DNA of 7,374 bases from the IMG/VR virus record IMGVR_UViG_2639762982_000006, one strand, 5' to 3'. A program made the position numbers. Within the stretch, counting starts at the first letter, position 1; each line of letters begins with the position of its first letter. The DNA is from a virus. Lineage: Duplodnaviria; Heunggongvirae; Uroviricota; Caudoviricetes. Positions 4,601 through 7,374 of this stretch are shown here, in pieces.

Positions 4601-7374
4601 GCCCCAATTAACGGGTAAAGGCCAGCAGTGGTTAACTCGCAAGCTACTTGATGCTGGTTTGTTAAAACCAGTAGCAATAGGTTAACAAAAGAAAAAACCT
4701 GCCAGCAAACTGGCAGGTTTCTGAGCAGATCGTCCAACCCGATCTGGATCGAGTCAGAAAAATTTGCTCTAATAAATTTCGTTTTCTAAGTGCAAAGAAT
4801 CACCATTTCGAGCTGGTGATTGAAGGTTGATGCAAATTTGGAGAAAAAATGCAACAAACATTCAATGCGGATATGAATATATCAAACCTTCATCAAAATG
4901 TCGATCCTTCAACCACTCTGCCCGTTATTTGTGGTGTTGAAATTACGACCGACCGCGCTGGCCGTTACAACCTTAATGCTCTACACAGAGCGAGCGGACT
5001 CGGTGCCCATAAAGCGCCAGCTCAATGGCTAAGAACGCTGTCAGCTAAACAGCTCATCGAAGAGCTTGAAAAAGAAACTATGCAGAATTGCATAGTTTCG
5101 TTCGAAGGCCGTGGCGGCGGCACTTTTGCCCATGAATTGCTCGCTGTGGAGTACGCAGGCTGGATTTCTCCCGCGTTTCGGCTGAAGGTAAACCAGACAT
5201 TTATCGACTATCGAGCTGGAAGATTACAACCTGCTATTCCGCAGAGTCTCCCTGAAGCTCTCCGTTTGGCTGCCGACCTGGCAGAGCAAAAGCAACGGCT
5301 GGAGCAAAAAATGCTTATGGATGCACCTAAAGTCGAATTCGCCGAACGCGTTGCTACCGCCAGCGGGGTTCTAATCGGCAACTATGCCAAAGTGCTCGGC
5401 CTGGGCCAAAACTATCTCTTCACCTGGTTGCGTGATAACGGAATTCTGATCGCAACCGGTGAACGCAGGAACGTCCCCAAACAAGAATACATATCCCGTG
5501 GGTATTTCACCCTTAAAGAAACCGTGATCGATACAAGCAATGGAAGCAGGATTTCTTTCACGACTCGTATAACCGGCAAAGGTCAGCAGTGGCTTATGAA
5601 GCGATTGCTTGATGCTGGTGTGCTGGTGCCTGTCGCGGCGACGCGCTAACAGACGTAGTAAGAACCACCAGCATTGTAATGCTGGCTAAAGTCACTTTCC
5701 TGAGCTGTATAACGATGAGCGATTTTACTTTTTCTGGCTATGAATTGGCCTGCTTTGTAACACACTCCGGTCTATCCCGTAGCGCCGGGCATATCTTGTC
5801 GCAATGTGCAAATCTCGCGGCAACAACCAGTGAATACTTCATTCACAAGCCTCACCGCCTGATCGCGGCAGAAACTGGTTATAGCCAATCAACCGTCGTT
5901 CGTGCATTCCGTGAAGCTGTAAACAAAGGAATCCTGTCTGTAGAGATTGTTATCGGCGATCACCGTGAACGTCGCGCTAACCTGTACCGGTTTACACCAT
6001 CCTTTTTGGCCTTCGCACAACAAGCCAAAAATGCGCTGATTGAAAGCAAATTAAAGATCTCTTCAGCGGCAACCAAGGTTAAAGCTGTTCTCGCTAAGAC
6101 ATTGGCTTTATTTAATTTTTTATCCACACCCCCATGTCAAAATGATACCCCCTCCCCCTGTCAGGATGACGTGGCAATAAAGAATAAGAAGTCACAAGTT
6201 AAAAAAACAAAAAGATCAGTTTCCGGCGGTGCCGGAACGACCAGACTCAAAAAATTGACTTCATGGATCGCTGAGGCAAAAGCAAAGGCTGACAATCTGC
6301 GGTTATCCAAAAAACGCGCTCAAAAACATGAGTTCAAGCAGAAAGTAGAGGCGGCAGCGCGGAAATATGCTTACCTGAAGGACAAGCGTTCTCCTGATAT
6401 TGGCGGGATATCAAACTTCGATAATCTGCCGCATTGCATGACGGTAAACGAAGCTCTTAATGCGGTTTTAGCCAAAAATAAAGATAACGAACAATGGGGT
6501 ATACCGGCAGGATTCAGAGGGTGATAGATTGCTCTAATCTGGAGTCACCTGGCGTTTTCGGTTTGAGGTCGGAGATGCAATCTGATTTTTTACAGTTAGC
6601 GATCGCTTTTGCAGGATATGTTTGTATTGGCTTCTGTGTATACATGATCAGCCGAAAAATGCTTGTCGATATCGACCGCAAAGAACAAGCAGAGGAGATC
6701 TTAGTATGGATTTTCTTTGGCGCGGTCTGGCCATTAGGGATCATGTTTGCTGCAACATTTCTTCTGATGTGGATATTCACCCTTCCAGGTGATTTCTATA
6801 GAAAAAAAGCCAGACATTGATACAATCGTTGCGGGTGCTTGAGGCTATCTGCTTCAGGCATTACCCGAAAAGCAGATAGAAGAAAGCCCCAGATAACATT
6901 ACGCGTCCTGCAAGACGCTTAACATTAATCTGAGGCCATATCTATGCTTAGCATACGTAGATTAGCCTCTTACCGACCAAAAGGTCAAGGAGAAGCAGGC
7001 TATGAAGCAGCATAAAGCGATATTAATCGCTCTGATCGTCATCTGTTTAACCGTCATTGTGACGGCACTGGTAACGAGGAAAGACCTCTGCGAGGTACGA
7101 ATCCGAACCGGCCAGACGGAGGTCACTGTCTTCACAGCCTACGAATCTGAAAGGTAAGAGACCTGGCGGGGAGAGATCCCATAAGCGCTAACTTAAGGGT
7201 TGAACCATCTGAAGAATGCGACGCCTCGGTGCCTCGTTAAGACGATGCCTCGCGTTCTTCAATTGCGTTTTGTAGGCTGTCAGGGATACTGTCCCACGAA
7301 TGGCCACCTGTAAGCTCCAGATGACCATTTTTGTTATTCTCCACAACGAGTTAGTTCTTCTTTTCGGATCCGGC

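Follow-up and report, generated by a model that had tools for sequence, protein, structure and literature searches.

The 7,374-nt stretch of DNA analysed here (the window, whose positions serve as coordinates throughout) comes from the IMG/VR virus record IMGVR_UViG_2639762982_000006 and is part of a P1-like phage-plasmid. Towards its 3′ end, positions 6799-7180 almost certainly hold the 5′ and coding portion, complete, of a hok/mok/sok type I toxin-antitoxin cassette of the HokD/HokW type. There the cassette is cut by a copy of the insertion sequence (IS) IS186, whose end is the main feature of the locus and was overlooked in a preliminary description of the window. That description had assigned the locus to the hok/sok family, correctly and with coordinates that all hold, and had proposed that it acts in post-segregational killing.

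The hok gene and its mRNA leader

The hok toxin gene lies on the plus strand at 7002-7157 (ATG 7002, TAA 7155-7157) and is an intact open reading frame (ORF) encoding a HokD/HokW-like peptide of 51 aa, given in the ORF listing as MKQHKAILIALIVICLTVIVTALVTRKDLCEVRIRTGQTEVTVFTAYESER. The peptide matches Pfam PF01848 HOK_GEF over positions 2-42 of the 42 in the model (E = 1.3e-21, 76.3 bits against a cut-off of 22) and PHROG 251, 'MokW-like host killing', at 3.2e-30; its NCBIfam Hok subfamily score, 50.3 bits, is under the strict cut-off of 73. In an Rfam scan the family RF01794 'sok', a model built on the hok-mRNA strand and ending at the hok AUG, was matched over its complete length (model 1-157) at 6833-7007 on the plus strand, with 114.9 bits, well above the gathering score of 59, and E = 2.3e-26. 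The Hok-family toxin of the preliminary description is borne out by the protein matches, and the R1-like leader by the full-model Rfam match together with alignment to R1. The gene was indeed missing from the ORF track, owing only to a length cut-off; RefSeq annotates exactly this ORF as WP_032173340.1.

The idea that the ORF arose by chance, resembles hok only by accident and is part of no real gene system has nothing in its favour but the small size of the ORF. This idea is refuted by the Pfam and Rfam matches and by hundreds of annotated hok loci with 88-99% nucleotide identity, and we give it practically no weight. On its sequence, the cassette belongs to the prophage/chromosomal HokD/HokW group and not to the R1 plasmid group.

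A promoter for the hok/mok mRNA is predicted on the plus strand at 6799-6826, where a −35 TAGAAA and an extended −10 TGaTACAAT are separated by a 16-nt spacer; the promoter scan scored it at 9 of 12 matches plus the TG, and its extended −10 overlaps the stop codon of an 81-aa ORF upstream. The end of the −10 is 6 nt from G6833, the start of the Rfam model and the predicted +1 of the mRNA, at which the model and the 5′ end of the R1 mRNA align. Homology to prophage hok cassettes starts at ~6821-6833, that is, at the −10/+1 of this promoter. The part of the mRNA that is still attached, 6833-7180 on the plus strand, comprises the 5′ tac element, the Sok-target hairpin, mok, hok and the first half of a G4N6C4 3′ hairpin, as delimited by the Rfam match, by alignment with R1, Rac, hokC and hokE, and by folds. 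The tac element is the first 12 nt (6833-6844, GGGUGCUUGAGG), and the hok Shine-Dalgarno (SD) sequence is AAGGAG at 6987-6992. In IS-free relatives the native hok mRNA extends ~75 nt beyond 7180, through the 3′ element fbi and the terminator.

Within hok, the Tyr47 codon TAC and the following G (7140-7143) form UACG, the motif for adenosine-to-inosine editing by TadA, which would recode Y47C. In the K-12 hokC, hokD and hokE mRNAs the equivalent Tyr codon is reportedly edited to Cys at 6-40%, and the edited Cys is thought to be important for toxicity (PMC12214031; bioRxiv 10.1101/2025.08.07.668861).

IS186 is inserted in the hok 3′ hairpin

The left end of IS186, an element of the IS4 family called IS421 by the Prokaryotic Genome Annotation Pipeline (PGAP), occupies 7181-7374 on the minus strand and extends past the end of the window, with its transposase gene on the minus strand and convergent with hok. 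The inverted repeat CATAAGCGCTAACTTAAGGGTTG begins at 7180, and the first 194 bp of the element are within the window. The full copy, present in a plasmid that is 100% identical to the window in the part compared, is identical at 1341 of 1341 nt to IS186A of E. coli K-12 MG1655, where its transposase, of 370 aa, is annotated as 'IS186/IS421 family'.

When both junctions are compared with the IS-free phage MH422554, the target duplication is 10-12 bp, with the core GGAGAGATCC inside GGGGAGAGATCCCC; its left copy, at 7168-7180 on the plus strand, belongs to the duplicated GGGG-AGAGAT-CCCC hairpin of the hok 3′ untranslated region (UTR). The insertion is clean, it lies 22-24 nt past the hok stop, between hok and fbi with the terminator, and homology to all IS-free relatives ends at 7180. 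The preferred target of IS186 is GGGG(N6/N7)CCCC (PMC6925257), and the hok 3′ hairpin fits this published target exactly.

The same event is found twice in K-12. In hokC (gef)/sokC and hokE/sokE, IS186 occupies the homologous nucleotide of the homologous hairpin, 18-19 nt past the stops, and across these loci and the window the insertions share a GGGGAG(A/T)(G/A)ATCCCC hairpin, 18-24 nt past the hok stop and before fbi. The junctions are GGGGAGTGATCC to CATAAGCGC at hokC and GGGGAGTAATCC to CATAAGCGC at hokE; the hokC copy is oriented as in the window and the hokE copy is opposite. K-12 hokC and hokE differ from the window's cassette in being chromosomal, in belonging to another Hok subfamily by sequence and, for hokC, in having a full-length mokC.

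Junction matches in CP057304.1 and in a Shigella sonnei plasmid were considered as further hok loci hit by IS186 and were rejected, the targets being GGGG-rich and unrelated. IS186 in the non-hok plasmid DNA of CP057304.1 and NZ_CP146291.1 (position 516 in each) is flanked by GGCGGGGAAAATCC and GGCGGGGATTTACCC, respectively; these flanks resemble the hok target and illustrate the target preference of the element.

The insertion separates tac from fbi

In the mechanism established for R1 (PMC9841398), hok mRNA is made from a constitutive promoter and, at full length, is held inert and stable by tac-fbi pairing. Slow 3′ trimming activates the mRNA, refolding it so that the mok ribosome-binding site is exposed; translation of mok then opens the hok start region, and Hok kills through damage to the inner membrane. 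The antisense RNA Sok is short-lived; it pairs with the mok start region and leads to decay by RNase III, such that after loss of the DNA Sok vanishes first and the cell dies.

Partners for the 5′ 14 nt of the mRNA were sought in seven loci, namely the window's plasmid after in-silico removal of the IS, an IS-free P1-like phage, Rac, a small plasmid, hokC, hokE and an R1-type locus. In IS-bearing loci the 3′ sequence was counted from the far IS186 junction, in the others from the hok stop. In all seven the best-pairing partner, fbi, is found 38-49 nt into the 3′ sequence, with pairing energies of −15 to −21.5 kcal/mol. The two elements covary by subfamily, as GGCGCUU/AAGCGCC in R1, GGGUGCCU/AGGCACC in hokE and GGGUGCUUGAGG/CCUCAAUGCACCC in the present group. 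IS-free siblings have a 12-bp tac-fbi duplex of −21 kcal/mol, located 45-46 nt past the hok stop, and in the minimum free energy (MFE) fold of a 424-nt IS-free sibling mRNA nucleotides 1-12 pair with nucleotides 374-386 (z = −7.5).

In the window's own element the native fbi and terminator are intact, and they lie beyond IS186, outside the window; the insertion displaces them by 1.34 kb and puts fbi 1395 nt downstream of the hok stop. The window transcript, folded to the IS junction or to the window end, gave a local 5′ hairpin only and no end-pairing, MFE predictions on RNAs of 350-540 nt being weak evidence. A terminator-like hairpin on the hok strand, ~550 nt into IS186, makes read-through to the native fbi less likely. 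The end of IS186 was also considered as a substitute fbi, as positions 7220-7235 could pair with tac at −16.8 kcal/mol near the native distance from the stop. This candidate was rejected; a chance site elsewhere in the IS equals it, and it is unused in the MFE fold.

A predicted Sok antisense gene

A cis-antisense Sok gene overlapping the mok start is predicted, the sequence features of a promoter and a terminator being present. The predicted RNA, of ~77 nt, is transcribed from the minus strand at 6952-6876 and consists of a 5′ tail complementary to the mok start region, a long hairpin and then UUUCUU. Its start at ~6952, 6 nt past the −10, and its end at ~6876 were set by alignment with K-12 sokC and sokE and with the R1-type locus. 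The stretch 6955-6880 folds with −31.9 kcal/mol (z = −4.5), a stability reached in 0 of 200 shuffles.

The predicted Sok promoter occupies 6988-6959 on the minus strand, with a −35 TTGACC (6988-6983), an 18-nt spacer and a −10 TAATCT (6964-6959), and is present just as the preliminary description had it. With just 3 of 6 positions shared with TATAAT, the −10 is weak, and the promoter is for this reason missing from the output of the generic scan; the sole support for the promoter is its position, which is homologous to those of the R1 Sok, K-12 sokC and K-12 sokE promoters.

Relative to the Rfam sok consensus, R1, hokC and hokE, the Sok-target hairpin contains an 18-nt expansion, cgcguccugcaagacgcu, at 6897-6914. 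Rac-type prophage hok loci have this expansion too. It makes up the tip of the hairpin that acts as the predicted Sok terminator, and it accounts for the predicted length of Sok, as against 59-64 nt elsewhere and 59-60 nt for K-12 sokC and sokE.

A private mok nonsense allele

The mok frame, which is +2 relative to the hok frame in the ORF listing, runs on the plus strand from 6944 to 7015 (ATG 6944-6946, 23 codons, TAA 7013-7015), with an SD sequence GAGG at 6932-6935. The preliminary description had the coordinates of this 23-codon frame right; its shortness, though, is not a peculiarity of the locus, since mok in relatives has ~69 codons, with a TGA that overlaps the hok stop in all those sampled. 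A single base makes the difference. T7013 changes CAA to CAT at hok codon 4, giving Hok Q4H and, in the mok frame, TAA, where relatives, both IS-free and IS-bearing, read CAG CAA AAA at hok codons 3-5. With a 60-nt probe across the site, the T7013 version was found in 2 of 424 plasmid records, both of them pig enterotoxigenic E. coli plasmids identical to the window, and position 7013 is an A in five of five other alleles inspected. Because T7013 is confined to these two plasmids and the relatives have a full-length mok, the short mok is, by sequence comparison, a recent private nonsense mutation and not a feature of the subfamily; a mok-less hok subtype was rejected for the same reason.

The shortened frame still spans the hok SD sequence and the hok AUG, its stop being 9 nt past the AUG. 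A mok stop beyond the hok AUG leaves hok translation unaffected in R1, where the mok nonsense mutations obtained in a suppressor screen lay upstream of the hok start, apart from two downstream ones that were attributed to effects on hok itself (Le Rhun et al., PMC9841398). The 23-codon mok is probably neutral for the translational coupling of hok.

Distribution of the interrupted cassette

Plasmids in PLSDB were counted with symmetric 91-nt junction probes, a match being counted if it covered 80% or more of the probe. This hok is followed by an intact 3′ UTR in 225 plasmids, by IS186 in the window orientation in 163 and by IS186 in the opposite orientation in 35, and these three classes sum to 423 of the 424 records that carry it. 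Thus, the interrupted form accounts for 198 of 423 carriers (47%), with both orientations at the same site, which implies at least two entries of IS186 in P1-like plasmids, besides those in hokC and hokE. Identity between IS-bearing copies is at least 99%, so that the intact hok ORF in them is uninformative on selection.

A killing cassette that is probably disabled

The window's cassette has kept its promoter, tac, Sok target, predicted Sok gene, mok start and hok ORF intact, with IS186 in the GGGG-N6-CCCC hairpin. Transcripts of hok would therefore enter IS186, making end-pairing impossible, and would take up the form accessible to Sok already during synthesis, to be degraded steadily for as long as the cell contains Sok. 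A stable reservoir of hok mRNA would then not build up, post-segregational killing would be weak or absent, and the cassette would survive as a relic silenced by Sok, its condition being that of K-12 hokC and hokE. We assign a probability of about 0.72 to this overall reading, of a genuine hok/mok/sok cassette that has been cut by IS186 and is silenced by Sok. Killing is doubtful because IS186 parts hok from the fbi and terminator that the R1 model needs for a stable inert mRNA, and on this analysis its loss from the interrupted copy seems to us reasonably likely. In R1, loss of fbi is reported to abolish killing (Franch and Gerdes, 1996; Thisted et al., 1994). Post-segregational killing on a phage-plasmid, as proposed in the preliminary description, is not supported as stated, given IS186 so close behind the hok stop and fbi 1395 nt away. 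In the literature, hokA, hokC and hokE count as loci that insertion elements have inactivated (PMC12214031), and IS-free hok loci of the chromosomal type gave neither post-segregational killing nor activation by rifampicin (bioRxiv 10.1101/2025.08.07.668861).

Several points weigh against a silenced relic. All five IS-bearing copies inspected retain an intact hok ORF, Sok and pair of promoters, and the persistence of the interrupted form in ~47% of carriers is compatible with retained function too; the copies are also so nearly identical that decay cannot have had time enough to appear. The alternative, weaker tac partner in IS186 lies close to where fbi would be, read-through across the whole of IS186 could in principle reach the native fbi, and fold predictions for RNAs of this length carry little force.

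A fully functional module that kills to maintain the P1-like plasmid prophage, with IS186 sequence substituting at the 3′ end or with fbi dispensable in this subfamily, would agree with the intact toxin ORF, mok start, Sok gene and promoters, with a shortened mok that still covers the hok start region, and with an allele as widespread as 198 of 423 carriers. It could also make use of the chance tac-complementary site at 7220-7235, at almost the native distance from the stop, and of the terminator-like hairpin on the hok strand of the IS. However, the two K-12 loci that have this IS at this position, hokC and hokE, are held to be inactive (PMC12214031), and the failure of IS-free chromosomal-type hok to kill or to respond to rifampicin (bioRxiv 10.1101/2025.08.07.668861) also speaks against such a module. 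The native fbi and terminator have been moved by 1.34 kb and the site in the IS is unused in the folds. P1-type plasmids, moreover, already possess addiction and partition functions of their own, the addiction function being phd/doc. We consider a functional killing module unlikely.

A role in defence against phages or superinfecting elements by abortive infection, or as a stress or persistence toxin, in place of plasmid maintenance and with the IS modulating the activity and not abolishing it, appears to us distinctly improbable. It draws on the protection against T4 given by R1 hok/sok on a high-copy plasmid and on the roughly four-fold enrichment of hok genes in prophages (bioRxiv 10.1101/2025.08.07.668861), and it would suit a cassette that is nearest to lambdoid-prophage hok loci and occupies a variable cargo slot of P1-like genomes. 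Yet the same preprint found that hok is not enriched near defence systems (bioRxiv 10.1101/2025.08.07.668861), and exclusion through shut-off of host transcription also requires a stable pool of hok mRNA, which the loss of fbi should remove.

More tentatively, the G4N6C4 hairpin 3′ of chromosomal/prophage-type hok genes may be a standing hot-spot for IS186 at which insertions are favoured and not neutral, in that they uncouple hok from fbi, 'defuse' a costly killer and keep Sok. We hold this to be possible but doubtful. If it were true, the retained Sok would provide immunity to incoming related hok mRNAs, and the change that creates the mok stop and Hok Q4H could be a second taming step.

Relation to known hok loci

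Apart from the IS, the cassette is closest to hok loci of lambdoid prophages. Its Hok is identical to that of the Rac prophage at 45 of 51 residues, the hokW/mokW loci of Rac and of Shiga toxin (Stx) lambdoid prophages are 88-92% identical in DNA from the promoter −10/+1 through fbi, and the Qin hokD (relF), Rac and Stx cassettes have the same tac (GGGUGCUUGAGG), mok start and Sok region. Alleles from P1-type plasmids that differ by one or two residues are called HokD by PGAP. The window's cassette differs from the hokD/hokW prophage loci in its carrier, a P1-like plasmid prophage and not an integrated lambdoid prophage, and in Hok Q4H and M7I, the premature mok stop and IS186 in the 3′ UTR.

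R1 hok/mok/sok (parB) has the same order of promoter, tac, Sok target, mok overlapping the hok start and a hok gene of 51-52 aa, and its 3′ part also matches in order, with a 3′ hairpin, fbi ~50 nt past the stop and a terminator. Outside the conserved blocks the similarity to the window is only distant. The R1 3′ hairpin, GGCGGGCGCAGGCCCGCC, is not a G4N6C4 site, and R1 is IS-free with proven post-segregational killing.

The system, the exact ORF and the occurrence of IS186 beside hok are all already known, and with hok/sok a textbook type I toxin-antitoxin the discovery value is small. A literature search for hok in P1-like phage-plasmids, or for IS421 beside hok, returned nothing specific, and what is modestly new is that IS186 has repeatedly hit its hot-spot in the P1-plasmid cassette, in either orientation and in roughly half of the carriers, together with the rare mok nonsense allele. 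Repeated, orientation-independent hits of IS186 on the same hairpin in three hok loci are an example of parallel inactivation driven by the target site. For annotation, scoring P1-like phage-plasmids for 'addiction' should include a check of the 3′ UTR before the cassette is counted as functional.

Genomic context

The window corresponds to the immI and lytic-replicon part of a P1-like phage-plasmid (Punavirus), an identity given by the joint presence of the C4 RNA, its a1/b1 target, icd, ant, kilA and repL, and the phage-plasmid setting named in the preliminary description is confirmed by the same genes. On the plus strand, the C4 antisense RNA of P1 immI is at 3172-3224 (Rfam, 70.8 bits) and the c4-a1b1 target at 3292-3377 (Rfam, 55.3 bits); icd (3424-3645), ant (3642-4685) and kilA (4849-5649) follow from the annotation of identical or near-identical records, and repL (5679-6524) is 98-99.9% identical to that of P1 and P7. 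An 81-aa ORF at 6575-6820 on the plus strand, or 108 aa from an upstream ATG at 6494, lies between repL and hok; it is hydrophobic and membrane-like, gave no match in Pfam and NCBIfam searches, and falls in PHROG 3772, of unknown function.

Homology to canonical P1 and P7 does not extend beyond ~6538, directly after repL, which makes the 81-aa ORF and the hok cassette a variable cargo slot; the cassette is cargo between repL and the baseplate genes. In the part compared, 6400-7374, the window is 100% identical to the E. coli plasmids pSvP1_F (NZ_MN510446) and NZ_CP122822, in which hok is annotated as 'Hok/Gef family protein', WP_032173340.1. The same cassette is present in hundreds of near-identical P1-like plasmids and in several P1-like phage records, where it is annotated as HokD or 'MokW'.

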